Of a stretch of DNA of 32,180 nt, positions 1,160-27,461 are shown piece after piece; position 1 is the first letter of the stretch, and each line of letters opens with the position of its first letter. Position numbers and translations under genes: made by a program. This stretch comes from an uncultured Eubacteriales bacterium. GTDB lineage: Bacteria; Bacillota; Clostridia; Oscillospirales; Acutalibacteraceae. The notes below the pieces were generated by a model that saw nothing but the letters and a program-made list of their open reading frames with translations, searched no databases and was not told the DNA's origin. The stretch spans positions 1 to 32,180 of the forward strand of contig ONNU01000158.1 of the NCBI GenBank assembly GCA_900319255.1. The letters run 5' to 3'.

Positions 1160-1262
1160 ATTAAATTTTTGTAACAATTCTATATTAGAGATAAATCAAG
1201 TGTTATTTGTAACGCTTTTGTACGCTTTGTGATGTATAATATAACATAATGCATAAAAAAAT
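1160..1262 (+). promoter_or_regulatory. Conserved operon-1 promoter/operator block (copy 1 of 2)
   Basis: Near-identical to 14609-14710. Contains the palindromic box TTGTAACAA (1169-1177). Direct repeats TTGTAAC (1207-1213) and TTGTACG (1218-1224) are 11 bp apart. Perfect TATAAT at 1235-1240. There is no TTGACA-like hexamer at a 16-18 nt spacing. Confidence 0.7.
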
Positions 1263-1375: not shown

Positions 1376-1672
1376 ATGACAACAGAAGTAAAAAAAGCAA
1401 ACGGGGCTTACACGATCAAGATAAGCGGAGGTATTGATACCCTTACTGCGCCGGAGCTGGAGCAGACCTTCAAGGAAATCGAGCCGCAGGCAGATAAAGT
1501 CATTTTCGATATGAAAGAGGTCGATTATATTTCATCAGCAGGAATAAGAGTTCTTGTCTATGTACACAGAGCAATGTCATCAAAGGACGGGCTTGTGCTG
1601 CGGGGATTGAATAAAAACGTCAGCACGATCATCAGCCTGACCGGATTTGACAAGGTGCTGACTATCGAGTGA
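1376..1672 (+). CDS. STAS-domain protein (anti-sigma-factor antagonist, SpoIIAA/RsbV-like), paralog 1
   Basis: 98 aa. The ORF-track start (GTG 1313) is trimmed to ATG 1376, which sits 8 nt after AAAGAGG and matches the N terminus of the paralog at 14864. Carries the STAS signature DYISSAGIRVLV, including the Ser that is phosphorylated in SpoIIAA-type proteins, and the C-terminal LTGFDKVL. Confidence 0.9.
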   Translation: MTTEVKKANGAYTIKISGGIDTLTAPELEQTFKEIEPQADKVIFDMKEVDYISSAGIRVLVYVHRAMSSKDGLVLRGLNKNVSTIISLTGFDKVLTIE

Positions 1673-1741
1673 AATATATAAAAAGATTAAGCCGGCAGTT
1701 CATATCAATAACCTGAATTATTCAACCACAGAGGGTTTCAT

Positions 1742-3712
1742 ATGAGAAAATCAATATTTTTTAAGCTTGCCCTGATCCTTATTCCGGTCGTTCTTGTCTG
1801 TGAGCTTGTGCAGCTTTATATTTCATACCGCACGATCTATGACTCAAATCTGAAGACCGTATCAAAGCTGACCGAAAGTACATCATTAACAGTATCGGAG
1901 ATGTTCAGATATTTTGATGAAGACAGCGAAAACGACCAGTATGAATACGGTCTGGAGTTAAGCAGGATGTGCGAGACATGGGGAGTAACATATATTTACG
2001 CCTTAGATGTCGATATAGATAAAAGATCGGAAAAATATCTTGCTATCGGCTTTGGTGAAGATGCGGCGGAGATAGTAAAAAAATCACGCTATGCGGGAGT
2101 TGTGGTGCAGGGAACGGTCAGTGATGCTCAGATACAGGCATACAGGAACAAAGAGAATAGCTTTATCGTTCATGAGAAAACAGAGCTTGATGACACGATA
2201 ACCTGTTACAGCATTTCAAAAGATAAATATGATTATACCAATTATAAGATCGTAAAACGCGATAAGCCGATATTGATAGGCGCAGAGGTATCCTTTTCGG
2301 CGGTCATGAAAGAATCCCGTCAAAGGTTTTTCTCAACAGCTACATATGACCTGATATTTACATTTATGCTTACCCTTGCGATCTTCATTGTGTTTTATCT
2401 GAGAGTCAACGGACCAGTCAGGAGGATAAGCAGCCGCATGAAGAATTTTGTTTCTGACCGTGATAAGGGAGTAGAAAAGCTGAAGGTCAGGGGAAATGAC
2501 GAACTGGCAGAGATGTCCCGTTCATTCAATCTGATGACCGAGGAGATAAACTCATATATCACGAGCATCGACAGCCTTAATAAAGAAAAGCATACTCAGG
2601 AAGCAGAGCTTGACATTGCCCGGAATATCCAGACAGGACTGCTCAAGCCCGGAAGCTATGAAAACGGTTCAGTCAGCATCAATGCTTGTATGCACGCGGC
2701 GAAGAATGTGGGCGGCGATCTGTACGACTATCAGGTATTCGACGACGGCAGGGTATTTATCTGTGTAGCAGACGTATCCGGAAAGGGAATATCAGCGGCA
2801 TTGTTCATGTCAAGGGCGATCACCCTGCTTCATCAGTATGCGCTGCATGATTATTCACCCTCAAGAATGCTTAGAGAATATAATAATACCCTTGCAGAGC
2901 AGAACCCGAACGGTATGTTCATCACGACCTTTGCCGCGGTGTATGATCCGAAAACTCACCAGCTGACATATTCCAATGCGGGACATAATCATCCGTATGT
3001 TATCGCAGATAAGCTTATTGAGCTTGACGGCGCACTGGGCGTTGCAGCCGGAATATTTGAGGGCATGGAATATGAGCAGGAAACGATCACTCTTCACCCG
3101 GGGGATGTTGTATTCCTGTATACGGACGGAGTGAACGAAGCGGAAAACAGCAACGGAGAAATGTACGGCACAGAAGCGCTGGAAAACGAGCTGAGAAAGT
3201 ATATCGGCGCAGCGAAAGGCAATATCTCCGATGAGGTTTTAAGCACGGTCAGGGAGTTTTCAGGTCATGCCGATCAGAGCGATGATATCACCATCCTTAC
3301 GCTGAAGCTTGAACAGGCATCCCTGCATGATGAGATCACCGTAAAAAACCGGGCGGAGAATCTGAAAATTGTAATTGAAAAGATCAACGCTCTGGATATC
3401 AATGAGGAAACAAAAGCACAGCTTCTGCTGATAGCAGAGGAATTGTTTGTCAACATATGTTCCTATGCGTACAAGGGAAAGGACGGAGATATCACCTTTG
3501 TACTGGATATCGGAAACGATCAGGCATCTATGATATTCACAGATGAAGGCGAGCCTTTTGATCCCACCGCTGATCTGATAGATATTGAAGAATATGACCA
3601 CGAGAACAGTATAGGCGGACTTGGACGTTTTCTTGCATTTGAATTGGCAGACGAATATTCATATGCTTATGAAAACGGCAAAAACACGCTGAAAATCATC
3701 AAAAAAATATAA
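1742..3712 (+). CDS. Membrane sensor PP2C (SpoIIE/RsbU-type) serine phosphatase fused to an RsbW/SpoIIAB-like kinase domain
   Basis: 656 aa. Two hydrophobic helices (about aa 5-27 and 197-220) bracket a loop of about 170 aa. A HAMP-like linker follows (NDELAEMSRSFNLMTEEIN). PP2C motifs are ARNIQTGLL, GGDLYDY, VADVSGKG, YTDGVNEA and SDDITILTLK. The C-terminal HATPase_c_2-like part reads AEELFVNICSYAYKG, FTDEGEPFDP and IGGLGRFLAFEL. Confidence 0.9.
   Translation: MRKSIFFKLALILIPVVLVCELVQLYISYRTIYDSNLKTVSKLTESTSLTVSEMFRYFDEDSENDQYEYGLELSRMCETWGVTYIYALDVDIDKRSEKYLAIGFGEDAAEIVKKSRYAGVVVQGTVSDAQIQAYRNKENSFIVHEKTELDDTITCYSISKDKYDYTNYKIVKRDKPILIGAEVSFSAVMKESRQRFFSTATYDLIFTFMLTLAIFIVFYLRVNGPVRRISSRMKNFVSDRDKGVEKLKVRGNDELAEMSRSFNLMTEEINSYITSIDSLNKEKHTQEAELDIARNIQTGLLKPGSYENGSVSINACMHAAKNVGGDLYDYQVFDDGRVFICVADVSGKGISAALFMSRAITLLHQYALHDYSPSRMLREYNNTLAEQNPNGMFITTFAAVYDPKTHQLTYSNAGHNHPYVIADKLIELDGALGVAAGIFEGMEYEQETITLHPGDVVFLYTDGVNEAENSNGEMYGTEALENELRKYIGAAKGNISDEVLSTVREFSGHADQSDDITILTLKLEQASLHDEITVKNRAENLKIVIEKINALDINEETKAQLLLIAEELFVNICSYAYKGKDGDITFVLDIGNDQASMIFTDEGEPFDPTADLIDIEEYDHENSIGGLGRFLAFELADEYSYAYENGKNTLKIIKKI
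3332..3709 (+). other. RsbW/SpoIIAB-like ATPase (anti-sigma kinase) domain within the phosphatase ORF
   Basis: N-box-like E-x-x-x-N-x-x-x-Y-A-Y, G1-like DEG, and a Gly-rich lid GGLG are all present. Boundaries are approximate. Confidence 0.75.
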
Positions 3713-3723
3713 GGAGAGGTACT

Positions 3724-6700
3724 ATGAGCAAACTAACCGGAAAGCTGAAAACAGTCTTTGAGGATTATTGCGATAAAACAGCCGTAACCGAGAGCTTTTC
3801 AGGCAGAAGCATCACCTACAGAGAGCTTGATATTCTCAGCGGAAAAATTGCTGCAAAGCTTAAAGCTGACGGGATCGGAAAAAACGATATCGTTCCGATC
3901 CTTCTTCCGAGAAGCTTTGAATATATCGCTGCCGAAATAGGCGCAATAAAAGCGGGCTGTGCATATGCGCCCCTGCTTGACGAATACCCTGCCGAAAGAA
4001 TAGAGTATATCTGCAGCGACTGCGGCGCAAAGCTTGTGATAGACGAGAAATATTTAAGCTTATCAGCAGAGCTTGACCCGCTGACGGAATACGGTGATAA
4101 CGCAGAAAATGACAAAGCCCTGCTGATATACACCTCCGGCTCCACAGGCAACCCGAAGGGTGTTATCCATACGCATAATTCATTTTACGAGGGTGTCAGA
4201 AGGAATATCCTGAATAACGGAATGAGCAAAAGCGACAGGACGCTTGGCATTATCAACTTCAGCTTTGCTTTGTCGGTAGACGAGGTATATGATACGATCT
4301 TCTCCGGCGCAGAGCTTTTTATGCTTGACAATGAAGAAAGAAAGGATATCCGCTTTGTAAAAAGCGCAATCATAGACAATCATGTCACAGCCCTGTATAT
4401 CAATCCGAATATGCTCAAACGTCTCGATCTGCACGGTTCATCTCTGAGGGTCGCGCAGACGGTAGGCGAGCGTTTGTCGGATTTTTATTCAGACGAATAC
4501 AAGATAATAAATGTTTACGGCGCATCAGAAACATTATGTGCGCTGGCATTTGAACTTGATAAAGCATATGACAATACCCCCGTGGGCAAAGCGGTCGACA
4601 GCTTCCGCGCATATATCATTGATGAAAACGGAAACGAGGCTGCGCCCGGCGCGGAGGGTGAGATATGCGTAGCAGGCGCATTGTCCGACGGTTATCTGAA
4701 TCTGGATGAACAGACAGCGGCTGCGTTTTCAAAAAATCCCTTCTCAGATGATGAAGGCTTCAGGACTATTTATCACACCAATGATATAGGCAAAATGCTG
4801 CCGGACGGCAATATCATCTATGTCAACCGCAAGGACTGGATGGTCAAGGTCAACGGTCAGCGTGTAGAGACCGGGGAGATCGAGGTGCGTATCGCTGCAG
4901 ATGTAGAAGCAGTCGAAACAGCTGTGGTCAAGGCCTTTGAAAATGAATACGGCATGACCTATCTTGCCGCATATTATCAGGTCAGAAAGGGAATGTCGGT
5001 AACTTCTGAGGAAATAGAAGCAGTTCTACGCAAAAAGCTGCCTGATTATATGATACCCCGATTCTTTACGGAGATGGATAAGATCCCCCTGAATGCAAAC
5101 GGAAAGGTTGACCGCAAGTCTATCCTTCCGCCTCAGGCAGCATCCTTCAAGGAGGAATATGCAGCTCCCGAAAACGAAACAGAAAAAATACTGTGTACAG
5201 CTTTTGAAAAGATCCTGCGCTGCGGTCAGGTGGGTATAAATGATGATTTCTTTGCCCTTGGCGGCGATTCTCTGCTTGCAATGAATCTGCAGCTGGACTG
5301 CGGACTGCCGGGACTTTCCACAGAGATGATCTTTGCCGGAAAAACCCCCCGGAGGATAGCAGAAAAGCTTCTGTCCTCTGCGCCCGCTGCGGCCTTTGCA
5401 GCTGAAAAGCTCAGCGAATATCCGTTGAATCCATTTGAGCGCGGAATGTATATTGAGCAGAAGCTTACACCGGGATCAACTATGTATAACCTTATCGGCT
5501 TCTACGAGGTAAGCGGCGCATCTGCTGAAAGCATCAGAGCTGCGCTGGAGGAAATTTTCCGCTCCCATGAAGCATTTCATTCTGTATACCGTGAAAAGGA
5601 CGGAACGATACTTCGCGTACTGGTGGATGAGATCCCTGATATCACGATTGAAAAAACAGATGATATCCGTGAGGGCTATGAAGCTGCAAAGGCGCTGAGC
5701 AAGCCCTATGATCTTTCAGCAGGCATTCCTGCAAGAGCCGTTATCTATACTGACGGACAGAGCTGTCTTGTCGCTTTGTTATATCATCACATCATGTTTG
5801 ACGGCGGAAGCGACGGTATTTTTGCGCGGGAGCTTCTTTCAAGGCTCAGCGGCGGAACTCTCATCACAGATAATTACGACCTCAGCGCAGCATCTCAGGA
5901 GGATAAAGAGGCGGCGTATGATCAGGGCTTTGAGAAATACCGTGAGATGTATTCCGACGGCGTACCTGTTACCGAGCTGCCGCTCAAAAAATCACGCCCG
6001 ATGTACCATCCTCATTCTGATACAAACAGGCAATTCATCATTGACGGCGACTCCCTGCAGAACCTCAGACAAGCCGCAAAAGAAAAGAAAACCACCATAT
6101 TCAATATTCTTCTTGCTTCTCTTGCAGCAACAACGGCAAAATACACTGCATCAGAGGATGTTGTTATCGGTGTGCCGGTAAATGAAAGAGACAGTCTTAC
6201 ACAGAATACCATCGGAATGTTTGTCAATACAGCGCCCCTGCGCATAAGACCCGTTCACGACAGATCAGCAGATGAATATCTGATGGAAGTCAGCGATACG
6301 GTCTCGTCCTTTATCAAAGAAAACCACTGCCCCTATGACCGCCTTGTTGCAGAGCTTGTCAAAGAGCGCAGCGACAGCCGCAATCCATTGTTTGATGTGG
6401 GCATCAACTATATTCCCATGCGCAAAGAGTATGAAAACGGCGGTATCTCTATCAGGACATCATATATCCTCCAGTCCTCCGGCAAGGATATCAATTTTGT
6501 CATGCAGGCAGAGGAAAGCAGGATCACCTGTTATGCACAGTATTCCTCCGAATTGTTTGATGATGATATAATCAGTAATTTCATAGAGCAGTTTATTTTT
6601 ACCGCTGAGAATCTTTGCTCAGGCGCAGGAACTGTACAGGAGGCTGCAAAGCTTCCCCTGATACAGAAGAAAGCGCTGGAGAGCTTCTCTACATCTTCGC

Positions 6701-9700
6701 TTGCATATGTTCCTGTAAAGCTGCTGCATAAGATGTTTGAAGCTGCGGCAGATAAATATCCGGAGAAGACCTCCCTTATCGCATGTGATCGTTCTCTTAC
6801 CCTTGCGGAGCTTGAAAGCGAAGCTAACAGAACTGCAAATGCGCTGATCTCCAGGGGTTTCAAAAAGGGAGAATGCGCAGTCATCATGCTCAGCCGCACC
6901 TCACGCTTTTTTGCAGCGCTGTTCGGTGTTCTGAAAGCGGGAGGAGCGTTCATTCCCACAGACCCGGCATATCCTGCGGAGCGTATTCACAGCGTACTTG
7001 ATGACAGCGAGGCGCGCTTTGTTATCACAGACGAGCCGAATGAAGAGTATGATAACTGTGTTACCATAGACGAGCTTCTTTCCTGCGCAGATGATACAAG
7101 ACCGGAAATCGAGGTAAGCCCTGATGATCTTGCATATATGATCTACACCTCCGGCTCCACCGGAAAGCCAAAGGGCGTAATGCTGCGCCACATCGGCATA
7201 TGCAGCTATCTTACCCCGAATAAAGCAAATCTCCATATGCAGTATCTTTACGATCATATCAGCACCTATCTTTCCATAACAACGGTCGCATTTGATATGT
7301 CATTCAAGGAGCACTGTGCCACCCTGTGCAACGGCAAAACGCTGGTATTTGCTTCTGATGAAGAAATGAACAACCCCAAGCTTCTTGCGGAGCTTATGGA
7401 TAAATACAAGGTCGACTGCATCAACGCTACTCCGTCAAGACTTCAGCAGTATCTGTTTGTTGAAGCCTTCCGCAGATCAATTGCAAACTGTAAATGCGTG
7501 ATATCCGGCGGCGAGGGCTATCCGCTGGCGCTGCTTAAAAATTTAAAGGAGTATGCGCCGGATGCCTGCATTTTCAATACCTATGGACCGACTGAGATCA
7601 CCGTTTCCTCAAATGTTGCTGATCTGACCCATGCAGAACAGATCTCCGTCGGCAGACCTCTGCTCAACTATATTGAATATATCGTGGATAAAAACGGCAG
7701 TCTTGCGCCCTTCGGCGTTACAGGCGAGCTTTATATCGGCGGTATCGGTGTAGCAAAGGGCTATAAAAATCTGCCGGATAAAACCGCAGCCTCATTTGTT
7801 GATTACCGCGGTCAGCGCATTTACCGTTCCGGCGATTTTGCAAAATGGGACAAGGACGGCAATGTGCTGATACTTGGCAGAATGGACAACCAGGTCAAGC
7901 TGCGCGGACTGCGTATTGAGCTTGGCGAGATAGAAAGCGTAATTGAAAGCTATGACGGAATAAAGGAAGTAGCCGTTGCTATAAAAACCATAGCAGGAAC
8001 GGAGCACATTGCGGCGTATTACACAGCGGATTCTGAAACAGACCCGAACGCCGTCAGAGAATATGCCGCATCAAAGCTGACACATTATATGGTTCCCACA
8101 GCTTATCTGCAGCTTAAAGAAATGCCGTATACGCTCAACGGCAAAAAGGATATGAAAAACCTGCCCGAGCCGCAGCTTCTCAAAAATTCCGCTCCGGATA
8201 GCAGCTCACGCAAGCTGACTAAATTTGAAAAAGAGCTTTGCGGGATCGCCGGAAAAGCGATCGGCTCAGAAGTAACGGACGTTTCTTCAAGCCTTGTAAG
8301 TCTCGGACTTACCTCGCTGAATGCAATTGCATTTACGACCTTTGTCGAGGAAAAATACGGCTGTGATATCCCGGTAGGAAAGATAATGCACGGCATGAGT
8401 ATTATTGAAGCAGAGGATCTGATCTATGATCACCTGATGCAGGGCGGCGCAGGAAAAGCAGAAGCAGACCTGCAGGCTGATATCCAGGAAACCTATCCGC
8501 TTTCAAATAATCAGCTCGGAGTTTATTACGAGGTCATGAAAAAGCCCGAGGAGCTTATGTATAATATGCCCCTTTGTTATTGCTTTGAAAGCGTAGATGC
8601 ATACAGACTGAAGGCTGCGCTTCTGAAGGCACTCGCAGCTCATTCCTATATGAACACGCACATCGAGATCAGAAGCGGCAACCTTGTTCAGGTAAGAAAT
8701 GATAATGCTGATCCCGTGATCCCGATAACCGAAATGACATATGAAGAGCTTGAAAAACGTAAAAATGAATTTGTACGCCCGTTTAATCTTCATTCGGATC
8801 TGCTCTACCGTTTTGAGATCATAAAGTCAGACAGCAGGACATATCTGCTTTCCGATATTCACCATATAATCTTTGATGGTCTTTCACGGGGAGTATTTAT
8901 GGATGCAGTTTCAAAGGCTTATGCAGGCGAAGAGCCGGGAAAAGAAAAGCTGAGCTATTTTGAATATGCATTGAATGAGAATAAGGAAAAGGATTCCGAA
9001 AGCTATCGTGAGTCAGAAAAATACTTCTCCGATATGCTCAGTAAATTTGAATCTGTCAGTGAGATCCCTGCTGATAAGAAGGGACGCTCAGAGGACGGAC
9101 GCATTGGTGTTGTGGAAGTGCCGATGGAGCGTGACGCAATGGAGCAGTTCTGCCGGAAGAATTCAGTAACGCCGTCGTCATTGTTCCTTGCTGCGACCTT
9201 CTACACAGTTTCACGCTTTACCAACAGCAGGAATGTCTATATCTCCACAATTTCCGGAGGCAGAAATGACAGCAAGGTGCGCAGGACTATCGGAATGTTC
9301 GTACATACCCTGCCGCTTCATATGAGCTTTGAAAAGGATATTACAGCAGGAGAGCTTATCGAAAGCTCAAATCAGGCAATGCTTCTCGATGTGGAGCATG
9401 AAAACTATCCGTTTATGCAGCTTGCTGATAAATTCGGCTATTCCACGGAGATTATGTATGAATGCCAGCTCGGTGTAGGCGGGGCAAAGCGTACTGTAGG
9501 CGATGCTGAATATTCCACAGAGTTCATGAAGCTTGAAACGCCGAAATTCAAGGTGACCATCGCCATAGAGGACAGAGCAGACGGAATTGCTGTTTCCATA
9601 CGCTATAACGATGCGGTATATACAAGAGAATATATGCTCACTCTCGCTGATTCTATAAAAAATGCAGCTCAGAGAATGATCACAGATGCGTCAGCATCCG

Positions 9701-12700
9701 TAAGGGAAATATCTCTTCTCAGCGACAGCGAACAGCAGGAGATGGAATCCATCAGCTGCACAGCCTGCGAAGAGCCTGCATCAGAGCTGCTTCATAAGCT
9801 TTTTGAAAAGAGCGCTGCTGAAAATCCCGATAATACGGCATTGATCGCTTGTGACGCTTCGCTGACCTATACACAGCTGAATCAGAATGCCAACCGTATC
9901 GCTCATATGCTGATAAATGCCGGTGTAAAGCCAAGGGACAGCGTAGTATTGCTGCTTCCCCGCAGAAGCTATTATTTTGCTTCGCTGTTCGGCGTGCTGA
10001 AAGCGGGCGCAGCATTTATCCCCTGCGATCCCGAATATCCTGCTGACAGGATCAGGCATATTATCGGTGACTCAGACGCAGCATTCATAATCACGACCGA
10101 AGATCATATGTCTGATTATCCTGCTGAAAAGGCATTGCTGATAGACGATCTTCTTCTCGGTAACGAAACGGATAATCCCGATGTTGAGATCAGCGGCAGT
10201 GACCTTGCATATATGATCTACACCTCAGGCTCTACAGGCAAGCCCAAGGGCGTAATGCTCACACATAAGGGCATATGCAGCTTCTGCACGACACACAGCG
10301 CAAATATCCTGTATCAGCTTGTAGAAAAGGAAATCAATACAATGCTGGCAGTGACCACTGTATCCTTTGACCTTTCATTAAAGGATACAGTAGGCATACT
10401 GTGCAGCGGCAGGACGGTCGTTTTCGCTTCTGAAACAGAAATGAATGACCCGCGTGCGCTTAAGCTGCTTATCGAAAGCAATAACGCCGATGCAATGAAC
10501 GCTACCCCGTCACGCTATCTGCAATATATGGAATACGAGCCTTTCAGAAAGGCTCTCAGCCGCTGCAAGCTGGTAATGGCAGGCGGCGAAGCATTCCCTG
10601 CAGCTCTGATGGAGCAGCTGAAGGAGCTTGGCATCCCGAATATCATCAATACCTACGGACCCACTGAAACCACTATTTCAAGCAATATGGCATTCCTGCA
10701 AAACGCAGATCATGTATCCGTGGGAAGACCGCTGCTCAATTACCATGAGTATATAGTGGATATTGACGGAAACCCTGTTCCAAAGGGAGTGACAGGCGAG
10801 CTTCTTATCGGAGGCTATGGCGTTGCGAGAGGCTATAAGAATCTGGATGAGCAGACTGCTGCAAGATTCATCGACTACCGCGGCGAGCGTGTCTATAAAT
10901 CAGGCGATTATGCAAAATGGGACAGCGATGGCAATGTTATCATACTTGGCAGAATGGATAACCAGGTCAAGCTGCGGGGACTGCGTATCGAGCTTGGCGA
11001 GATCGAGGGTCTTATCGACGAGCAGCCTCATATCAAGAAAGCTGTGGTTGTCATTAAAAAGCTTGCGGGCGTTGAAAACCTCTGCGCTTATTATACAGCC
11101 GATTGTGAGATCAAGCCCGAGGAGCTTAAACAGGAGCTTGCAAAATCCCTGACCCATTATATGGTCCCGACAGCTTATCTGCAGCTTGATACCATGCCGG
11201 TGACACCAAACGGCAAGACCGATCTGAAAGCGCTTCCCGATCCGGTAGCAGTTACCTCAGGCGAGTATTCTGCGCCGAAAAATGAAACAGAGGAATATTT
11301 CTGCGGGCTGTTCAAAAAGGTATTGAAGCTTGAAAAGGTAGGAGCAACCGACAGCTTCTTTGAGATCGGCGGCACATCGCTGCTTGTCACCTCTGTTGTC
11401 ATTGAAGCAGCTGAGAACGGCTATGAGATAACCTATGGCGATATTTTCCGCAAGACCACTCCCCGGGAGCTTGCAGAGATGTTCACATCAGAGGACGCAG
11501 ACGAAGGTGTTCGTATCGTTGATTTTGATAATTACGATTATTCAAAAATCAATGAAATGCTTACTCATAACAATATAAAAACTCTTTGCGAGGGCGAACA
11601 GCGACCCATCGGAAATATCATGCTCACGGGAGCTACCGGCTTTATGGGAGCACATGTTCTTGCTCATTATCTTAGCAGCGAGACCGGCAGAGCTTATTGT
11701 CTTATCAGAAAAGGAAAATTCGATTCACCCAAAGAGCGTCTGAAAAACATTTTCTTCTATTATTTTGAAAGCGAGCTGGAGAATGAATTTGACAGCCGCG
11801 TTACGGTATTGGACGGCGATGTTACCAATTACGATCAGTTCGTTCCCTTTGAAACGCTGCCCATCGACACCGTTTTCAACTGCGCTGCCAATGTCAAGCA
11901 TTTCTCCAACGGAACGGATATTGAGGATGTCAATGTAGGCGGCGCGCAGAACTGCGTAAAGCTTTGTAAAAAGATCGGCGCAAGGCTTATACATTTCTCC
12001 ACCACCAGCGTATGCGGCGCAAGCGTGGATAATCAGCCTCCCGCAGGCACTGTGCTTGACGAACAGTCACTTTATATCGGACAAAGACTGGATACCAAGT
12101 ATACCAATTCAAAGCTTCTTTCCGAGCGCGTAGTTCTTGAAGCAGTGGCAGATAATAAGCTTGATGCAAAGGTCATCCGTGTGGGTACTCTTTCCGCGAG
12201 AGAAAAAGACGGTGAATTCCAGATCAATTTCCTTACCAATAACTTTATGGGACGCCTGCGTTCATTTGAGATCATCGGCTGTTTCCCGTATTCCATGATA
12301 AATTCACCCGTATGCCTGAGTCCTATTGACGAAAGCGCAAAGGCATTTTTCGCGCTTGCAAAAACGCCGAAGGAATGTTGTCTGTTCAACTGCACCAATA
12401 ACCATTCTGTACCTCTTGCCGATATAATAACCCAGATGCAGAGATCAGGAATGAACGTAAAGCTCACAGATGATAATGTATTTGCAGAAGCCTTGTCCGC
12501 TGCCGAAAAGGATCCGCAGAAGGCTGCCATTCTTTCAAGTATGCTTGCCTATAAGAATATGGCGCACGGAAAAATGCTTGTTCCGATCCTTCCTGTGAAT
12601 AACTATACAACACAGGCGCTGGCAAAAATGGGATTCCTGTGGAAGCCCAGCAGCGAGAAATATATGCTTGATTTCATTGCTGCGCTTTCATCCCTTGACT

Positions 12701-12729
12701 TCTTTGACAATACTAATCTGAGCAGGTAA
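3724..12729 (+). CDS. Trimodular NRPS with terminal reductase: A-T-C-A-T-C-A-T-R
   Basis: 3001 aa; RBS AAGGAGAGG at 3711-3719. A3 motifs: LIYTSGSTGNPKG (about 4120-4160) and AYMIYTSGSTGKPKG (about 7132-7180 and 10204-10255). A10 is NGK-x-D. Carrier Ser codons: 5269-5271 (GGDS), 8314-8316 (GLTS), 11377-11379 (GGTS). HHxxxDG at 5785-5805 and 8860-8880. Reductase motifs GATGFMG (11629-11649) and YTNSK (12100-12114). Confidence 0.97.
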   Translation: MSKLTGKLKTVFEDYCDKTAVTESFSGRSITYRELDILSGKIAAKLKADGIGKNDIVPILLPRSFEYIAAEIGAIKAGCAYAPLLDEYPAERIEYICSDCGAKLVIDEKYLSLSAELDPLTEYGDNAENDKALLIYTSGSTGNPKGVIHTHNSFYEGVRRNILNNGMSKSDRTLGIINFSFALSVDEVYDTIFSGAELFMLDNEERKDIRFVKSAIIDNHVTALYINPNMLKRLDLHGSSLRVAQTVGERLSDFYSDEYKIINVYGASETLCALAFELDKAYDNTPVGKAVDSFRAYIIDENGNEAAPGAEGEICVAGALSDGYLNLDEQTAAAFSKNPFSDDEGFRTIYHTNDIGKMLPDGNIIYVNRKDWMVKVNGQRVETGEIEVRIAADVEAVETAVVKAFENEYGMTYLAAYYQVRKGMSVTSEEIEAVLRKKLPDYMIPRFFTEMDKIPLNANGKVDRKSILPPQAASFKEEYAAPENETEKILCTAFEKILRCGQVGINDDFFALGGDSLLAMNLQLDCGLPGLSTEMIFAGKTPRRIAEKLLSSAPAAAFAAEKLSEYPLNPFERGMYIEQKLTPGSTMYNLIGFYEVSGASAESIRAALEEIFRSHEAFHSVYREKDGTILRVLVDEIPDITIEKTDDIREGYEAAKALSKPYDLSAGIPARAVIYTDGQSCLVALLYHHIMFDGGSDGIFARELLSRLSGGTLITDNYDLSAASQEDKEAAYDQGFEKYREMYSDGVPVTELPLKKSRPMYHPHSDTNRQFIIDGDSLQNLRQAAKEKKTTIFNILLASLAATTAKYTASEDVVIGVPVNERDSLTQNTIGMFVNTAPLRIRPVHDRSADEYLMEVSDTVSSFIKENHCPYDRLVAELVKERSDSRNPLFDVGINYIPMRKEYENGGISIRTSYILQSSGKDINFVMQAEESRITCYAQYSSELFDDDIISNFIEQFIFTAENLCSGAGTVQEAAKLPLIQKKALESFSTSSLAYVPVKLLHKMFEAAADKYPEKTSLIACDRSLTLAELESEANRTANALISRGFKKGECAVIMLSRTSRFFAALFGVLKAGGAFIPTDPAYPAERIHSVLDDSEARFVITDEPNEEYDNCVTIDELLSCADDTRPEIEVSPDDLAYMIYTSGSTGKPKGVMLRHIGICSYLTPNKANLHMQYLYDHISTYLSITTVAFDMSFKEHCATLCNGKTLVFASDEEMNNPKLLAELMDKYKVDCINATPSRLQQYLFVEAFRRSIANCKCVISGGEGYPLALLKNLKEYAPDACIFNTYGPTEITVSSNVADLTHAEQISVGRPLLNYIEYIVDKNGSLAPFGVTGELYIGGIGVAKGYKNLPDKTAASFVDYRGQRIYRSGDFAKWDKDGNVLILGRMDNQVKLRGLRIELGEIESVIESYDGIKEVAVAIKTIAGTEHIAAYYTADSETDPNAVREYAASKLTHYMVPTAYLQLKEMPYTLNGKKDMKNLPEPQLLKNSAPDSSSRKLTKFEKELCGIAGKAIGSEVTDVSSSLVSLGLTSLNAIAFTTFVEEKYGCDIPVGKIMHGMSIIEAEDLIYDHLMQGGAGKAEADLQADIQETYPLSNNQLGVYYEVMKKPEELMYNMPLCYCFESVDAYRLKAALLKALAAHSYMNTHIEIRSGNLVQVRNDNADPVIPITEMTYEELEKRKNEFVRPFNLHSDLLYRFEIIKSDSRTYLLSDIHHIIFDGLSRGVFMDAVSKAYAGEEPGKEKLSYFEYALNENKEKDSESYRESEKYFSDMLSKFESVSEIPADKKGRSEDGRIGVVEVPMERDAMEQFCRKNSVTPSSLFLAATFYTVSRFTNSRNVYISTISGGRNDSKVRRTIGMFVHTLPLHMSFEKDITAGELIESSNQAMLLDVEHENYPFMQLADKFGYSTEIMYECQLGVGGAKRTVGDAEYSTEFMKLETPKFKVTIAIEDRADGIAVSIRYNDAVYTREYMLTLADSIKNAAQRMITDASASVREISLLSDSEQQEMESISCTACEEPASELLHKLFEKSAAENPDNTALIACDASLTYTQLNQNANRIAHMLINAGVKPRDSVVLLLPRRSYYFASLFGVLKAGAAFIPCDPEYPADRIRHIIGDSDAAFIITTEDHMSDYPAEKALLIDDLLLGNETDNPDVEISGSDLAYMIYTSGSTGKPKGVMLTHKGICSFCTTHSANILYQLVEKEINTMLAVTTVSFDLSLKDTVGILCSGRTVVFASETEMNDPRALKLLIESNNADAMNATPSRYLQYMEYEPFRKALSRCKLVMAGGEAFPAALMEQLKELGIPNIINTYGPTETTISSNMAFLQNADHVSVGRPLLNYHEYIVDIDGNPVPKGVTGELLIGGYGVARGYKNLDEQTAARFIDYRGERVYKSGDYAKWDSDGNVIILGRMDNQVKLRGLRIELGEIEGLIDEQPHIKKAVVVIKKLAGVENLCAYYTADCEIKPEELKQELAKSLTHYMVPTAYLQLDTMPVTPNGKTDLKALPDPVAVTSGEYSAPKNETEEYFCGLFKKVLKLEKVGATDSFFEIGGTSLLVTSVVIEAAENGYEITYGDIFRKTTPRELAEMFTSEDADEGVRIVDFDNYDYSKINEMLTHNNIKTLCEGEQRPIGNIMLTGATGFMGAHVLAHYLSSETGRAYCLIRKGKFDSPKERLKNIFFYYFESELENEFDSRVTVLDGDVTNYDQFVPFETLPIDTVFNCAANVKHFSNGTDIEDVNVGGAQNCVKLCKKIGARLIHFSTTSVCGASVDNQPPAGTVLDEQSLYIGQRLDTKYTNSKLLSERVVLEAVADNKLDAKVIRVGTLSAREKDGEFQINFLTNNFMGRLRSFEIIGCFPYSMINSPVCLSPIDESAKAFFALAKTPKECCLFNCTNNHSVPLADIITQMQRSGMNVKLTDDNVFAEALSAAEKDPQKAAILSSMLAYKNMAHGKMLVPILPVNNYTTQALAKMGFLWKPSSEKYMLDFIAALSSLDFFDNTNLSR
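11605..12726 (+). other. Terminal SDR-type thioester reductase (R) domain of NRPS 1
   Basis: Rossmann motif LTGATGFMGAHVL, then HFSTTSV, then YTNSK (Y-x-x-x-K). No thioesterase motif follows the last carrier domain. Confidence 0.85.
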
Positions 12730-12734
12730 AAGCT

Positions 12735-14465
12735 ATGAAAAGAAAAGGAACTTTGCTACGAAATAAATTCAATGAGTATCTGATGTCCACCCTTGCCATG
12801 AGCGCATCGCTGTACCTTGCTGCTATTGTCGATAATATCATGGTGGGTAATATTCTCGGCACAGATGCTCTTGCGGCGGTGAATCTTACATCCCCGCTTG
12901 TCTATGTCAAAAATATCGTTTTCAGCATTTTCATCTACGGCGGCAATACGCTTGTCGCCATGTACAAGGGCAAACGCGATAATAAAAGCGCTGACAAGGC
13001 ATTTACATTTTCGCTGCTGTTCGGAATAATCGCATCAACGATCGTGATGACTGCCGGTATTCTTTTAGCTCAGCCAACTGCTACGTTCCTGTCGCAGGGG
13101 GGAGCGCTGTATGAAAATGCATTTGCGTATATCATTCCCCTGTGGGCAAGCGGACCGCTGATTGTTCTCAACAGCGGCTCTGCTGCCTATGTCAGGACAG
13201 ACGGTCTGAAAAAGCTTGCGATAGCCCTCCCCATATCTTCCAATGTAATCAATCTTGCGTGCGATTATATTTTTATGAAATGGTTCGGCTGGGGTGTTGC
13301 AGGCGCAGGATGGGCAACGGTTGTAGGCTATGCTATCGGCTCATTCCTTCTGATCATTTACTTTACTTCAAAGCAGCGCACCGTGCATTTTGTAAAGGTG
13401 TCATTCAGGGATATAAAGCAGCTTGCGGGAGTTCTTCAGACCGGACTTCCCACAGCGCTTATCCATGTCTGCAATGCTGTCCGCACCTATACGGTCAACG
13501 GCGTTATCCTTGCATCAGCAGGAACAGTGGGAATGCAGGTGGTAACGATCTGTTTGTCAGCGTTCAATGTTGCGCTGATCTTCATAAACGGCTCTGCAAC
13601 AACGCTTATGCCTATCTGCGGCGCCCTTTACGGAGAGCGTGACAATAACGGCGTCAGATATGTATTAAAGTTTTCGCTCATTGTCACGGAGATTATGTGC
13701 TTTGTTGTTCTTGCGGTGTTTGAGCTTTTTCCGGTGGCAGTCGGCGGATTGTTCGGAAAGCTTTCTCCCGAGACCGCCGCGCAGCTTGAGGGCGCTTTGC
13801 GTATATTCTCGGTCTGCATACCCTTCTATGGTATCTCCTATATTTTAAGAGCCTTCTATCAGTCAACCAAACAGCGGGGAGCTGCTTCACTCTTTACAAT
13901 ACTTGAGGGCGTGGTATTCATCGTTCCGATGATCTATATTTTCTCCAGAACCAGTCAGACGCTGATGTGGCTGTCCTTTGCATTGGCAGAGATAGCTGCG
14001 ATCATCACTACTGCGCTTACCATGCAGATCATTGCAAAGCGCAAAAAGCTCGGCAGCTTCCTTATGATAGACAGCTCCGGTGAATCGGGAGTGCTGGATA
14101 TGACGATAGATAATGAGGTCGAAAGCGCCGTTGTCGCATCGAGAAAGATCAGGAAATTCTGTAATGAAAATAATATCAGCGATACCCTCAGCACGATACT
14201 GACCGTTACCTCTGAGGAGCTTGCAGTCAACGCTGCAAAATATGCCTACAAAGGTAAAAGCGAAATTGATGTCTGCCTGAGAATTCTCGAAAACAAACTG
14301 GTGCTGAGATTCAGGGATAACGGTATGATATTCAATCCCACAGAATATATAGACGACTCGGGAAAAGAAGTCACCGGACTTCTGGTTGTCCGCAAGCTCA
14401 CTCCTGATATCAGCTATAACCGTGTTCTTGGCTTCAATGTTACTGTTGTTACTCTTGACAGATGA
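12735..14465 (+). CDS. MATE-family efflux transporter fused to a C-terminal RsbW/SpoIIAB-like domain, paralog 1
   Basis: 576 aa; starts 5 nt after the NRPS stop. The N-terminal ~445 aa are multi-helix with a MATE-like start (LAAIVDNIMVGNILGTDALAAVNL). After a KRKK stretch the tail reads SEELAVNAAKYAYKG and RFRDNGMIFNPTEYIDDSG. Confidence 0.88.
   Translation: MKRKGTLLRNKFNEYLMSTLAMSASLYLAAIVDNIMVGNILGTDALAAVNLTSPLVYVKNIVFSIFIYGGNTLVAMYKGKRDNKSADKAFTFSLLFGIIASTIVMTAGILLAQPTATFLSQGGALYENAFAYIIPLWASGPLIVLNSGSAAYVRTDGLKKLAIALPISSNVINLACDYIFMKWFGWGVAGAGWATVVGYAIGSFLLIIYFTSKQRTVHFVKVSFRDIKQLAGVLQTGLPTALIHVCNAVRTYTVNGVILASAGTVGMQVVTICLSAFNVALIFINGSATTLMPICGALYGERDNNGVRYVLKFSLIVTEIMCFVVLAVFELFPVAVGGLFGKLSPETAAQLEGALRIFSVCIPFYGISYILRAFYQSTKQRGAASLFTILEGVVFIVPMIYIFSRTSQTLMWLSFALAEIAAIITTALTMQIIAKRKKLGSFLMIDSSGESGVLDMTIDNEVESAVVASRKIRKFCNENNISDTLSTILTVTSEELAVNAAKYAYKGKSEIDVCLRILENKLVLRFRDNGMIFNPTEYIDDSGKEVTGLLVVRKLTPDISYNRVLGFNVTVVTLDR
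14093..14462 (+). other. RsbW/SpoIIAB-like (HATPase_c_2-type) tail domain of exporter 1
   Basis: N-box-like EELAVNAAKYAY and G1-like DNG. The lid region has only one Gly (EVTGLLVVRKL). Boundaries are approximate. Confidence 0.7.
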
Positions 14466-14519
14466 AAGCAACCCCGGCAAATAATAATAGCCGTATAAAA
14501 TAGTTTATATCTATATGCT

Positions 14520-14577
14520 CCGACTCCCGTAGATCAGAAATAGCACTGATTTTCAGGGTGTCGGGGCGTTTTCTTTT
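14520..14577 (+). terminator. Probable rho-independent terminator ending operon 1
   Basis: CCGACTCCC (14520-14528) pairs with GGGTGTCGG (14556-14564) with one mismatch. There is inner ATCAG/CTGAT pairing, followed by GGCGTTTTCTTTT. Confidence 0.55.
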
Positions 14578-14608
14578 ATCGCCGCAGACGTTTTCAGAGT
14601 AATGAATT

Positions 14609-14710
14609 ATTAAATTTTTGTAACAATTCTTTATTAGATAAAAATAGCCTGTTTTTGTTACGCTTTTGTACGCTTTTTAATGTATAATATATATAATGCA
14701 TAAAAAATCA
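14609..14710 (+). promoter_or_regulatory. Conserved operon-2 promoter/operator block (copy 2 of 2)
   Basis: TTGTAACAA (14618-14626), TTGTTAC (14655-14661), TTGTACG (14666-14672) and TATAAT (14683-14688). The 11-bp phasing and the 17-bp distance from the proximal box to the -10 are the same as in copy 1. Confidence 0.7.
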
Positions 14711-14863: not shown

Positions 14864-15160
14864 ATGACAACAGATGTAAAAAATGAAAATGAGGTTTACA
14901 CAATTATGATCAGCGGCAGGATAGATACTCTTACCGCGCCTGAGCTTGAGCAGAAGTTCAAGGAGATCCAGCCGGATGCAAAAAAGGTCATATTTGATAT
15001 GAAGGATGTGGAATACATTTCATCGGCTGGAATGAGAGTGCTTGTTTATGTCCACAGGGAAATGTCATCGAAGGACGGACTTGTTCTTCGCGGACTTACC
15101 AGAAACGTCAGCACCATCATCGGACTTACCGGATTTGACAAGGTACTGAATATTGAGTGA
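14864..15160 (+). CDS. STAS-domain protein (anti-sigma-factor antagonist-like), paralog 2
   Basis: 98 aa with RBS AAGAAAGAGG upstream. By my count 79 of 98 residues are identical to the STAS protein at 1376-1672. The EYISSAGMRVLV motif is retained. Confidence 0.9.
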   Translation: MTTDVKNENEVYTIMISGRIDTLTAPELEQKFKEIQPDAKKVIFDMKDVEYISSAGMRVLVYVHREMSSKDGLVLRGLTRNVSTIIGLTGFDKVLNIE

Positions 15161-15166
15161 TATTAA

Positions 15167-15179
15167 ATTACGAAGTTGA
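15167..15179 (+). repeat. 13-bp direct repeat ATTACGAAGTTGA, copy a
   Basis: Exact match to 15353-15365. Begins 6 nt after the STAS-2 stop codon. Confidence 0.85.
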
Positions 15180-15352
15180 TAGACGATTGTAAATTGGCAA
15201 ATGGTCGTCTGCCCGCCGCAGGAAGTGCCCTTGGGGTGCGGGCGGACACCTCGCCAAAAGCCTGAAAATCCTTGGAAAACGGAGAAAATTGATTATTCTA
15301 AATACAAATAAATCCGCATAAACACAGGCTTTTCTGTATTTTACAATCAGCT

Positions 15353-15365
15353 ATTACGAAGTTGA
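15353..15365 (+). repeat. 13-bp direct repeat ATTACGAAGTTGA, copy b
   Basis: Exact match to 15167-15179. Lies immediately 5' of the NRPS-2 RBS AAAGGAG. Confidence 0.85.
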
Positions 15366-15382
15366 GTAAAGGAGAATGCGTA

Positions 15383-18300
15383 ATGTACCAGAGTATCATC
15401 CGGAAAATTCTGGATAATGTCAAAAACGCCCCCGACACCATCGCGATCATTGACCAGGGCGAGGGCAATCAGTTTACCTACAGTGAATTTGAAGCATATG
15501 CTCGCAGGGTAGCAGGAAAGCTCAGCCGTCTGGGAGTGAGCCGCAATGACTTTGTAACGATCGAGCTTCCGAGAAACAAGGAATATATCGCATCAATGGC
15601 AGCTGTATGGATGACGGGAGCAGCATTTGTGCCTCTTTCACCGGCATACCCTGCCGAGAGAGTGCAGTTTATCCGCAGCGACTGCAGCGCAAAGGCTGTG
15701 ATCGACAGCGCCTTTTTAGAAAATATAGGAAACGAAGCTCCCATTGAAGATATTGCTTCAGTCGAACCCTCCGATCATTCCCTTATGATATACACCTCAG
15801 GCTCGACCGGAAAACCCAAGGGTGTACTTCATTCCCATCTCAGCATCAGCGACTCTGTATTCCGCTTTCTGGAATATGCAGACAGCCCCGCAGGCTTCCG
15901 TGCGGCGGTAGGCGCGCCGTTTACATTTGTTGCATCGGTGCAGGGCGTATTTGAGCCGCTTTGTGCCATTAACACCGCGGTGCTTGTTCCGTATGAGGCA
16001 ATGCGCGACCCTGTTCTGCTGGCAGATTTTATTGAGCAGTACCAGGTGAACAGATGTTTTATCAGCCCCAAAATGCTCAGGGTATTCAAAGCAAAGGGCA
16101 ATTCCCTTAAAATCGTATCCACCGGCAGCGAGCGTGTTTCAAATACATACAGCGCAGATTATACGATACAGGTAGCCTACGGTCAGACAGAATCCGCAGG
16201 CGCTGTTATGATGTTCAGAATTGATAAGAAATATGATAATACTCCCATCGGCAAGCCCATCGGAAATGTAAAGGCTTATCTTCTGGATGAAAATAATCAG
16301 CCTGCCGATGAAGGCGAGATGTGCCTTGCAGGCAATTTTGCAACAGGATATCTGAATCTGCCCGAGCTGACAGAAAAGACCTTTATCCCGAACCCCTTCT
16401 TTGAGCAGGACGGATTTCCGAAGCTTCTCAAAACAGGCGATATCTGCAAAAAAGGCGAAAACGGCAATTATATCTATCTGAACCGCAAGGACTGGATGGT
16501 CAAGATCAACGGTCAGCGCGTAGAACCGGGAGAGATCGAAGCTGTACTTAAAAACACTGACGGAATAGCCGATGCTGCGATCAAGGATTTTAAAAATACC
16601 TTCGGACAGGTTTATCTTGTCGCATATTATACAGAAAAGGAAGCAGTTGACGTTGAAGCGCTGAAAGCAAAGGTCTCCGCGCAGCTGCCGCCCTATATGA
16701 TACCCTCGTTCTTTGTCAGACTTGATAAGCTGCCGGTTAACCAGAACGGCAAGCTGGACAGAAACGCTCTGATCCCTCCCGAAGCAGGCGAATTCAAAAA
16801 TGAATACGCTGCTCCTGAAACAGAGCTGCAAAAGGCTCTTTGCTCAGCATTTGAAAAGATACTCGAAGCGGAGAACGTAGGTATTGACGATGATTTCTAT
16901 GCTCTCGGCGGAGATTCCATAAAGAGCGCGATGATTGCCCGTGAATGCGAGGCTTATCATCTTTCCACAGCTGTTATCCTTGCGGGCAAAACTCCCCGCG
17001 GTATCGAGCATATGATAAAGCGCTCAGCGCAGAAGGCATCTGTTGTCAGAAAGGAAAACAAGCCCAAGGTCTATCCGCTGACTTCCTCTGAACGGGGAAT
17101 GTATCTGGAGCAGAAGCTTTATCCTGATTCTGTTTCCTTCAACCTGAATATCGGCGTGATGATAAGCGGTGCAGACGCCGAAGCTGTCAGAACAACACTG
17201 GAGAGCATTTTCTCCTCACATGAAGCCTTCCGCTCCACCTACGGCGAGGAAAACGGTCTTCCTGTCCGCATCGTTACTGACAGGCTGCCCCAGATCATTG
17301 AAAAGACAGCCGCAGCAAGGGAAGATGTAATTAAGATAATTGACAGCTATGCCGAACCGTTTGATCTTTGCGCTGATATCCCGGTGCGCCCCACGCTTTA
17401 TACTATCTCAGACGGCGAGGTCATTCTCCATATGGCTATCCATCATATTGCTTTTGACGGCGGCTCTGCAAAGCCCTTTATCACAGAGCTGATTGACGGC
17501 TTGAACGGAAAAATGCCGGAGGCTGCTACGATAGATCTGTCGGATCTTTATGATTGTCAGACGGAGGAGCAGCATGAAAACGGACTTGCTTATTATCGAA
17601 ATGTCTTTGCCGATGGAGTTCCCGTGAACGAAATGCCGACTAAAGCCCGCCGCCCGAAGGTACATCCGGTTTCCGACCGGGAGATCGCCTTTGATCTCGA
17701 CACTGCTAAGGCAAGGCTGATGGATAAAGCTGCGCGCAAATTCGGCGTAACAAGATTTGAGCTGATCTTTGCGGCTATTTCTATGGCTCTCGGAAAGTAC
17801 ACCTCTTCCGAGGACGTTGTGCTGGGTATTCCCACCGATATGCGTCCCAACGGAGCGGAGGGTGTTATTGGAATGTTTGTCAATACAGCTCCCGTGCGTG
17901 TAAAACCGGTAAGAAGTATGGAGCTGAACGATTATTTTGCCGCTGTAAGCGAAGCTGTGCGCGGAGCTACATATGGAGCATCCCTGCCCTTTGAGGATAT
18001 CGTGGCGGAATTTGTCAAAACGCGCGACGAAAGCCGCAGCCCCATATTTGATGTCAGCGTAAACTATCTGCAAAAGCCGGCTGTTTACCGCAGCAGCGGT
18101 CTGATTGTGGATATGTATTCTCCATTGCAGAACATGACCCGTGATATAGCCATTGTCATAAGCAACAGCGAGGATGGTATGCGCTTCGTTGCAAGGTATT
18201 CCGGAGAGCTGTTTGAGGATGATATGATCGAAAGCTTCCTCGGACAGGTAAGGCATACTGTTGATATCTTTACAGGCAGCGAAGCTAAAACCGTCCGGGA

Positions 18301-27451: not shown

Positions 27452-27461
27452 GGAGGACATT

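Follow-up and report, generated by a model that had tools for sequence, protein, structure and literature searches.

Streptomyces antibiotic regulatory proteins (SARPs) recognise direct repeats at intervals of 11 or 22 bp, and the 3′ member lies 8 bp from the −10 element (PMC10936776). For AfsR, the operator is the 22-bp afs box, which has its centre at −29.5 and overlaps the −35 element; two protomers occupy it next to each other, and sigma region 4 rests on the protein instead of the DNA (PMC10936776). The bacterial transcriptional activation (BTA) domain of AfsR (residues 120–270) comprises 7 helices: sigma region 4 is seated on helices 3–7, and contact with the C-terminal domain of the RNA polymerase alpha subunit (alpha-CTD) is made by the BTA helix bundles (PMC10936776). 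The pho box of PhoB is built from two 11-bp units, in each of which 7 positions are conserved and 4 serve as spacer, and it takes the place of the −35 element (PMC2648988, PMC4971064). A 2024 review describes SARPs as exclusive to actinobacteria (PMC10972967). Here we describe two promoters of this general geometry in a 32,180-nt stretch of DNA from an uncultured Eubacteriales bacterium (contig ONNU01000158.1; the whole stretch is referred to as the window), each preceding an operon that encodes a nonribosomal peptide synthetase (NRPS), together with the regulator encoded beside them at 293–1099. It is likely that two protomers of this regulator bind the tandem boxes of each promoter, recruit or adapt the sigma-A RNA polymerase and thereby switch on both NRPS operons.

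The elements of the two repeat promoters, copy 1 and copy 2, are as follows.

1207–1213, + strand: box 1 of copy 1, the distal direct repeat, TTGTAAC (read from the sequence)
1212–1217, + strand: ACGCTT, occupying the place of a canonical −35 (17-nt spacer) and matching TTGACA at 1 of 6 positions
1218–1224, + strand: box 2 of copy 1, the proximal direct repeat, TTGTACG, starting 11 bp after the start of box 1
1235–1240, + strand: perfect −10 TATAAT of copy 1, without TGn extension
14655–14661, + strand: box 1 of copy 2, TTGTTAC
14666–14672, + strand: box 2 of copy 2, TTGTACG
14683–14688, + strand: perfect −10 TATAAT of copy 2, without TGn extension

In copy 1, 10 bp separate the end of box 2 from the −10 element. 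An earlier, sequence-only reading of this DNA had given the coordinates of both boxes and their 11-bp offset correctly, as well as the 17 bp from the start of box 2 to the start of TATAAT and the same geometry in copy 2 (14655, 14666, 14683). Its statement that no TTGACA-like hexamer lies at a spacing of 16–18 nt is borne out by the hexamers found there in copy 1 (CGCTTT, ACGCTT and AACGCT) and by a sigma-70 consensus scan, which called no promoter with either TATAAT. The ACGCTT hexamer is conserved family-wide as ACGnTT. The conserved unit exceeds the heptamers first described and reads TTTGTAACGCT / TTTGTACGCTT. Assuming that transcription starts about 7 nt past the −10 element (near 1247 in copy 1 and about 14695 in copy 2), this 22-bp operator spans about −41 to −20, with its centre near −30, and box 1 of copy 1 falls at about −40 to −34, corresponding to positions 4–10 of the 40-nt model introduced below. 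Under the same assumption, the promoters show the features of activator-dependent housekeeping-sigma promoters of the 'sigma adaptation' type, namely a consensus −10, no −35 at 16–18 nt and a site near −30.

This arrangement is not expected by chance. The pattern TTGT-N7-TTGT-N13-TATAAT, with at most one mismatch, occurs twice in the window versus 0.01 times expected from shuffles, and the 40-nt model finds exactly two sites of at least 8 bits, at 1203 (44.3 bits) and 14651 (43.4 bits). The two copies are paralogous and therefore count as a single observation; independent support comes from recurrence across the family. Reading the boxes as a displaced −35 element was rejected, as TTGTAA and TTGTAC would have spacers of 22 and 11 nt, and pairing them with a second −10-like hexamer (1245; 14692) would give spacers of 21 and 20 nt, unequal between the copies. 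That second hexamer (CATAAT or TATAAT) belongs to the segment of presumed first transcribed bases, ATAACATAATGCATAAAAAA, which is conserved between the copies (1242–1258 and 14690–14706). Its distance from the boxes differs between the copies, which places it off the family register; the second TATAAT of copy 2, at 14692, is off the family spacing.

We followed the architecture through relatives of the regulator. A protein search gave 215 matches, with 591 confirmed stretches in species-representative genomes; most homologues come from rumen Ruminococcus, Oscillospiraceae and Lachnospiraceae, and related loci were also found in Eubacterium and Butyrivibrio. A 40-nt weight matrix was trained on the DNA immediately 3′ of 80 regulator genes, each from a species-level locus (L001–L080), and applied to 776 kb of these loci. 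Matches of at least 14 bits were taken as sites, and a site was considered adjacent if it lay on the same strand and no more than 400 nt downstream of a regulator gene. Shuffled loci and 332 kb of unrelated STAS loci served as controls, the latter obtained from a metagenome scan with the window STAS protein (relatives up to 59% identical) and used for this purpose only. The resulting model has the consensus TTTTTGTGACGTTTTTGAGCGC-N9-TATAAT, and the training scores are sharply bimodal.

In total, 39 sites lie within 400 nt 3′ of regulator homologues on the same strand, and 26 further sites occur elsewhere in the same 776 kb, outside the training DNA. The shuffled loci contained one site and the unrelated STAS loci none. 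Phylogenetic footprinting, which the sequence-only reading had proposed as a check, shows that the repeat plus TATAAT architecture adjoins regulator homologues in 51 of the 80 species-level loci; among the 35 loci whose regulator shares at least 47% identity with the query, 28 have a site. The extra sites include many at about 2.1–2.4 kb upstream of the regulator stop codon, where they precede the gene for a multi-pass membrane histidine kinase (PF06580 + HATPase_c) that is encoded ahead of the regulator, and others directly 5′ of the regulator gene. Sites before the kinase–regulator operon or the regulator gene would be the usual signature of autoregulation. Other genes behind the motif encode an NRPS (L001), an S15 peptidase, very large secreted proteins, a MatE exporter and single-domain receivers.

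Promoter and box statistics, as well as the counts for a third box discussed below, were taken over 53 distinct sites from these loci and the window. The −10 element matches TATAAT at all six positions in 24 sites and at five in 26, and the best −35 match at a spacing of 16–18 nt reaches no more than two of six positions in 49. A TGn-extended −10 is present in 28 of the 53, which do not include the two window sites. The register between box 2 and the −10 element is fixed. Box 2 consistently has one base fewer than box 1 (TTGnnCG versus TTGnnACG), such that the TTGs are 11 bp apart and the CGs 10 bp, and the two half-sites are therefore not equivalent. L007 keeps the extra base in box 2, and its −10 element is shifted by one, preserving the distance from CG to −10. 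At about 2735–2800 in L019, the units TTGAGAC, TTGAGAC, ATGAGAC and ATGAGCG follow one another at exact 11-bp intervals, ahead of a −10 that reads TAAAAT. The array resembles some SARP sites, extended to three repeats; longer arrays of this kind exist, although not in the window.

The two boxes also vary together. Box 1 (TTGnnACG) and box 2 (TTGnnCG) share their variable dinucleotide in 21 of the 53 sites, versus 6.7 expected and a maximum of 15 in 10,000 permutation trials. Over the 16 core positions, sites differ at 1.7 positions within a locus and at 5.6 between loci; 5,000 permutations never produced so low a value. These patterns suggest a genuine direct repeat, recognised by like protomers and varying in dialect from locus to locus. 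L026, for example, has boxes of the TTGAGAC type, and the window has TTGTAAC. The dialect in turn follows the protein: from locus to locus, divergence of the boxes correlates more strongly with that of the DNA-binding domain (r = 0.54) than with that of the receiver (r = 0.43), and the partial correlation of the boxes with helices α2–α3, given the receiver, is 0.40, with 0 of 3,000 Mantel permutations as high.

The closest relatives of the window regulator carry nearly the same boxes. L165/L166 and L167 were retrieved after the matrix had been built; L001 belongs to the training set, and its site lies upstream of the regulator, outside the training DNA. In L165/L166 (regulator 73% identical), TTGTAAC-GCTC-TTGTACG-N10-TATAAT diverges from the regulator gene and precedes a gene for a beta-helix protein, and in L167 (67% identical), TTGTAAC-GCTT-TTGTACG-N10-TATAAT precedes a SpoIIE gene; these sites score 41–43 bits. 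L001, whose regulator is 69% identical and has an identical recognition helix, carries TTGTCAC-ACTT-TTGTACG-N10-TATAAT before an NRPS gene. Target genes change among the relatives, and the regulator and its boxes stay together. STAS and HATPase_c_2 genes lie near the SpoIIE gene of L167. The same locus has, at 8880–9060 and downstream of the 67%-identical regulator, three TTGTCAC/TTGTTAT boxes spaced by 22 and 11 bp; the gene behind them encodes a Nif11-type leader peptide that ends in GG (Pfam Nif11, E = 4e-5). On this evidence, the regulator family may also control a ribosomal peptide (bacteriocin-like) precursor.

In the regulator, a receiver (Pfam Response_reg, E = 9e-15) is followed by a DNA-binding winged helix of the SARP type and then by three short helices that form a truncated BTA domain. 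Its match to Trans_reg_C (PF00486; E = 0.005, 17.4 bits) is under the Pfam cut-off of 26.2, and a precomputed PF00486 match exists for about a third of the homologues among the matches listed. Pfam BTAD (PF03704) does not match the regulator even at E up to 10. Sequence matches to EmbR (E = 0.038) and to the AfsR model of NCBIfam (E = 0.006) are weak, and NCBIfam has no family for the window regulator. A structural model of the whole protein (pLDDT 88) resembles OmpR/PhoB regulators. Because receiver domains dominate a sequence-only search against Protein Data Bank (PDB) chains, the link to SARPs required a fold search with the isolated C-terminal domain. For the AlphaFold2 (AF2) model of residues 125–268 (pLDDT 92), the best Foldseek match in the PDB is AfsR (8hvr_I, E = 3.9e-6, TMq 0.75). 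Further SARP-domain matches include EmbR (2ff4/2fez, TMq 0.77) and AfsR (8k60), over a range of E = 4e-6 to 3e-5 and TM 0.73–0.77. The SARP domains of AfsR and EmbR match the isolated domain over its whole length, whereas PhoB/ArlR-type domains align over about 85 columns with E of about 5e-3, roughly 1000-fold weaker.

Only helices 230–235, 239–244 and 254–267 follow the winged helix, and coverage of the AfsR SARP domain is correspondingly partial (TMt 0.45). Since only three helices follow and BTAD is not matched, the protein is not a full SARP; as modelled, it is a receiver fused to a truncated SARP domain that lacks a full BTAD. The term receiver-SARP used in the sequence-only reading thus holds for the receiver and the SARP-type winged helix, but not for the BTA domain, in which three of seven helices are present and Pfam BTAD finds no match. 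The regulator family is uniformly short (242–316 aa among the 120 matches listed), and homologues P0055, P0099 and P0100 bear the JGI label 'two-component SAPR family response regulator' (COG3947). Our search of the literature found neither a paper on COG3947 or receiver-SARP regulators in Clostridia nor a family member or binding site that had been characterised.

The receiver is most like those of LytR/BtsR, which fits the PF06580 partner kinases of the relatives. The family as a whole has an intact receiver pocket, but the window regulator does not: in a comparison with 39 homologues, N8, E55 and A84 replace D (39 of 40 family members), D (37 of 40) and T (39 of 40). Position 55 is the phospho-acceptor, and the closest relative, P0002, also has E55. 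Unlike most relatives, the window regulator has no kinase gene beside it. The loss of three pocket residues, including the phospho-acceptor Asp, and the lack of an adjacent kinase gene indicate that the window regulator probably acts without phosphorylation, as an 'atypical' response regulator; its activity would then depend on how it is expressed or on some other input. JadR1 and RedZ are atypical, phosphorylation-independent response regulators of Streptomyces antibiotic clusters, and end-product control is known for JadR1. The window regulator resembles them in being linked to a biosynthetic cluster, with a degenerate phosphorylation pocket and no kinase nearby, and differs in that JadR1 and RedZ are actinobacterial proteins of the OmpR or NarL type.

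Comparison with the described systems gives a similar mixture of likeness and difference. As in the SARP systems (AfsR and the afs box, ActII-ORF4, DnrI and RedD), repeats with an 11-bp period lie over the −35 position, and the last repeat is at a fixed distance from −10; the 22-bp operator is centred near −30 here and at −29.5 for the afs box; the regulator gene is cluster-situated, beside the NRPS operons; and the best fold matches of its DNA-binding domain are AfsR and EmbR. The gap between box and −10 is 10 bp here; taking GTACGCT as the heptamer shortens it to 8 bp. In contrast to the SARPs, the present system belongs to rumen Clostridia, its regulator has an N-terminal receiver domain and a BTA region of about 40 residues and three helices that lacks the helices with which AfsR contacts sigma region 4 and alpha-CTD, its box is TTGTRACG and not of the TCGAG type, and its −10 is a strong TATAAT and not a weak one.

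With the PhoB/OmpR family, the system shares the combination of receiver and winged helix, the placement of relatives in apparently autoregulated kinase–regulator operons and, with the pho box, two 11-bp units in place of the −35 element, each made up of a conserved 7-mer and 4 bp of T-rich spacer. With the heptamers as first described, the window site ends 10 bp before −10, as the E. coli pho boxes reportedly do (Makino, 1986). The differences from this family are the Trans_reg_C match under the Pfam threshold, a fold that is nearer to SARPs and extends into BTA helices, a LytR/BtsR-type receiver with PF06580 kinases (LytS/YesM type) and not the EnvZ/PhoR type, and Glu at the phospho-acceptor position of the window regulator. 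Thus, the geometry fits SARP sites and PhoB pho boxes alike, and by predicted fold the SARP branch appears nearer.

Sequence architecture, family-wide linkage to the regulator and the SARP-like fold of the DNA-binding domain are the observations on which our proposed mechanism is based; from them we infer physical binding, activation as opposed to repression, contact with RNA polymerase and the start of transcription. One regulator protomer would occupy each repeat of the 22-bp tandem operator TTTGTAACGCT-TTTGTACGCTT, centred near −30, with the two protomers side by side on the same face of the helix. Since the −10 is perfect and no −35-like element is present, RNA polymerase carrying the housekeeping sigma factor would depend on the regulator bound at the −35 position. 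The regulator would replace the contact between sigma region 4 and −35, as AfsR-type SARPs and PhoB do, and the bound regulator would turn on both NRPS operons. The sequence-only reading had proposed that the boxes are the sites of the 293–1099 regulator, and this assignment gains support from the comparisons made here, i.e., the footprint, the near-identical boxes of relatives, the covariation and the AfsR/EmbR fold.

Several points weigh against this mechanism. (i) The regulator lacks BTA helices 4–7, and its contacts with RNA polymerase therefore cannot equal those of AfsR. (ii) The perfect −10 may give some transcription that is independent of the regulator. (iii) No site was found in 29 of the 80 loci, and four loci with the P0003 regulator (L081–L084), which is 70% identical, have none within 8 kb. 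Adjacency is therefore not universal, which suggests that some family members may act on distant targets or use diverged boxes. (iv) The loci were gathered via the regulator, so that adjacency of the site is partly built in; the controls for this are the shuffles and the unrelated loci. (v) The protein–DNA covariation is only partly corrected for shared ancestry and is supportive rather than decisive. In L081–L084, the P0003 regulator follows a short, soluble-looking kinase of 215–231 aa.

Other explanations of the repeats were weighed against the same evidence. The regulator could bind them as a repressor that blocks the core promoter, with the perfect −10 driving transcription in its absence. 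The site does overlap the core promoter (about −41 to −20), OmpR-family regulators can in general repress, and the 28 family sites with a TGn-extended −10 could work without a −35 element. However, the two window promoters have no such extension, the lack of a −35 in 49 of 53 sites combined with a fixed repeat-to-(−10) register is the signature of activator dependence seen with SARPs and PhoB, and sites before the regulator's own kinase–regulator operon fit positive autoregulation; we therefore regard repression as unlikely. It is quite improbable that another tandem-repeat regulator encoded elsewhere, e.g., of the PhoP or OmpR type, binds the boxes and that the adjacent regulator has other targets. 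The 7+4+7 layout is generic for OmpR/PhoB-type winged helices, the receiver of the window regulator is degenerate, and AfsR and PhoP share one site in Streptomyces (PMC10972967). Yet the box dialect is specific to the locus and tracks the α2–α3 region of the adjacent regulator, and L001, with the same recognition helix, and L165 and L167, with close ones, keep the boxes by the regulator gene in contexts that otherwise differ.

An alternative sigma factor, either of the extracytoplasmic function (ECF) type with TGTAAC as its −35 or under partner switching by STAS, SpoIIE and RsbW-like proteins, would account for the resemblance of TGTAAC to the −35 of Bacillus ECF promoters and for the partner-switching proteins encoded in both operons. 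Nevertheless, the downstream element of high information is TATAAT, the housekeeping −10, and not CGTC or CGTA, on which ground this reading was rejected. The columns of a would-be ECF −10 carry 0.1–0.7 bit, there is no sigma factor gene among the genes of the window, dozens of loci without partner-switching genes have the motif after the regulator gene, and the two boxes co-vary as a repeat, all of which makes this explanation very improbable. That the boxes have no function, being a duplicated T-rich intergenic segment in which TTGT occurs twice by chance, would be compatible with the window copies being paralogous and a single observation, but is scarcely credible given 51 independent species-level loci with the motif versus one in shuffles and none in controls, and a promoter block far better conserved than either the third codon positions of the STAS genes (56% identical) or the flanking intergenic DNA.

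Conservation between the two copies extends upstream of the repeats, to a segment that we refer to as block A.

1159–1189, + strand: block A of copy 1, holding the third box TTGTAACAA (1169–1177); 30 of 31 positions identical to 14608–14638
14608–14638, + strand: block A of copy 2, holding TTGTAACAA at 14618–14626

Block A (31 nt, TATTAAATTTTTGTAACAATTCTwTATTAGA) lies at about −88 to −58. The STAS genes of the two operons have 80% DNA identity overall, and the flanking intergenic DNA does not align. Between them, a block of about 105 bp (1153–1260 versus 14602–14707) is 86% identical, and within it block A and 1207–1241 (identical at 32 of 35 positions) are joined by a linker of 11–12 nt that is mostly different and contains an indel (heterogeneity, Fisher P of about 7e-4). 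Because the linker has diverged and the two segments have been kept, selection appears to act on discrete sub-blocks, one of which comprises the repeats plus the −10 element. Block A likewise appears constrained in this genome, to judge from its conservation, and may be the site of a second factor. The third box described in the sequence-only reading is real, starting at 1169 and 14618, 38 and 37 bp upstream of box 1. Its proposed role as a site of the same regulator did not hold: these distances are unequal and not multiples of 11, the box is not enriched across the 53 family sites (8 forward matches versus 7.8 expected), and block A and the third box are absent from L001, L165 and L167. We therefore rejected it as a family feature.

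The remaining features of the window place each repeat promoter between a strong terminator-like hairpin upstream and a STAS-led operon downstream.

107–135, + strand: probable sigma-A promoter of the regulator gene, TTGCAT, 17-nt spacer, TATAAT (read from the sequence)
293–1099, + strand: regulator gene, 268 aa (Pfam, AF2 model)
1109–1139, + strand: terminator-like hairpin with an 11-bp GC-rich stem (RNA fold of 1100–1150, −26.5 kcal/mol)
1376–14465, + strand: operon 1, behind the copy 1 promoter (Pfam, NCBIfam)
1376–1672, + strand: operon 1, STAS (Pfam)
1742–3712, + strand: operon 1, HAMP-SpoIIE-HATPase_c_2 (Pfam)
3724–12729, + strand: operon 1, NRPS with 3 adenylation (A) domains, 2 condensation (C) domains and a terminal reductase (Pfam)
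12735–14465, + strand: operon 1, MatE exporter fused to HATPase_c_2 (Pfam)
14515–14569, + strand: terminator-like hairpin followed by GTTTTCTTTT, closing operon 1 (RNA fold of 14505–14590, −30.1 kcal/mol)
14864–29204, + strand: operon 2, behind the copy 2 promoter (Pfam)
14864–15160, + strand: operon 2, STAS (Pfam)
15362–27451, + strand: operon 2, NRPS with 4 A domains, 3 C domains and a terminal reductase (Pfam)
27321–29204, + strand: operon 2, MatE-HATPase_c_2 (Pfam)

The probable promoter of the regulator gene retains a −35-type TTG and is free of direct repeats. It was missed by the promoter scan, its −35 hexamer falling under the 4-of-6 rule, and is conserved, spacer included, in L165 (about 1480–1510; TTGCATTyGGmrGAATGTTCrGwTATAAT). 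The conserved spacer might be another operator. The hairpin at 1109–1139, which the terminator scan did not call because of its weak U-tract, ends the regulator transcription unit, and the repeat promoter downstream is therefore a separate unit. Rfam gave no match in the window, including the leaders of 135–175 nt, and the reading as a known RNA element was dropped. Both NRPS operons contain parts of partner-switching systems, namely STAS proteins, a HAMP-SpoIIE phosphatase with an RsbW-like HATPase_c_2 domain, and MatE-HATPase_c_2 exporters. The last of these, an unusual exporter–kinase fusion, may couple export to signalling.

Taken further, and tentatively, these regulators could represent a large 'mini-SARP' family of response regulators in rumen and gut Clostridia, which would have kept the SARP-style replacement of −35 and lost the BTA helices that seat sigma region 4, contacting the polymerase differently, perhaps via the receiver. 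Phosphorylation would also have been lost in the regulator described here, and gating may have passed to the partner-switching proteins of the target operons (STAS, the SpoIIE phosphatase and the exporter-fused RsbW-like kinase). We consider this extended scheme doubtful; if it is true, such gating would let export of the NRPS product feed back on transcription.

The operator TTGnnACG-N3-TTGnnCG, followed by 10 bp and TATAAT, provides a concrete candidate site for a regulator family present in hundreds of genomes of rumen and gut Clostridia. Its locus-specific dialects could yield orthogonal regulator–promoter pairs, and expression of the regulator or a promoter swap offers a handle for waking the silent NRPS operons of uncultured rumen bacteria. 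Replacement of the −35 element in the manner of SARPs and PhoB thus likely serves NRPS clusters outside the actinobacteria.

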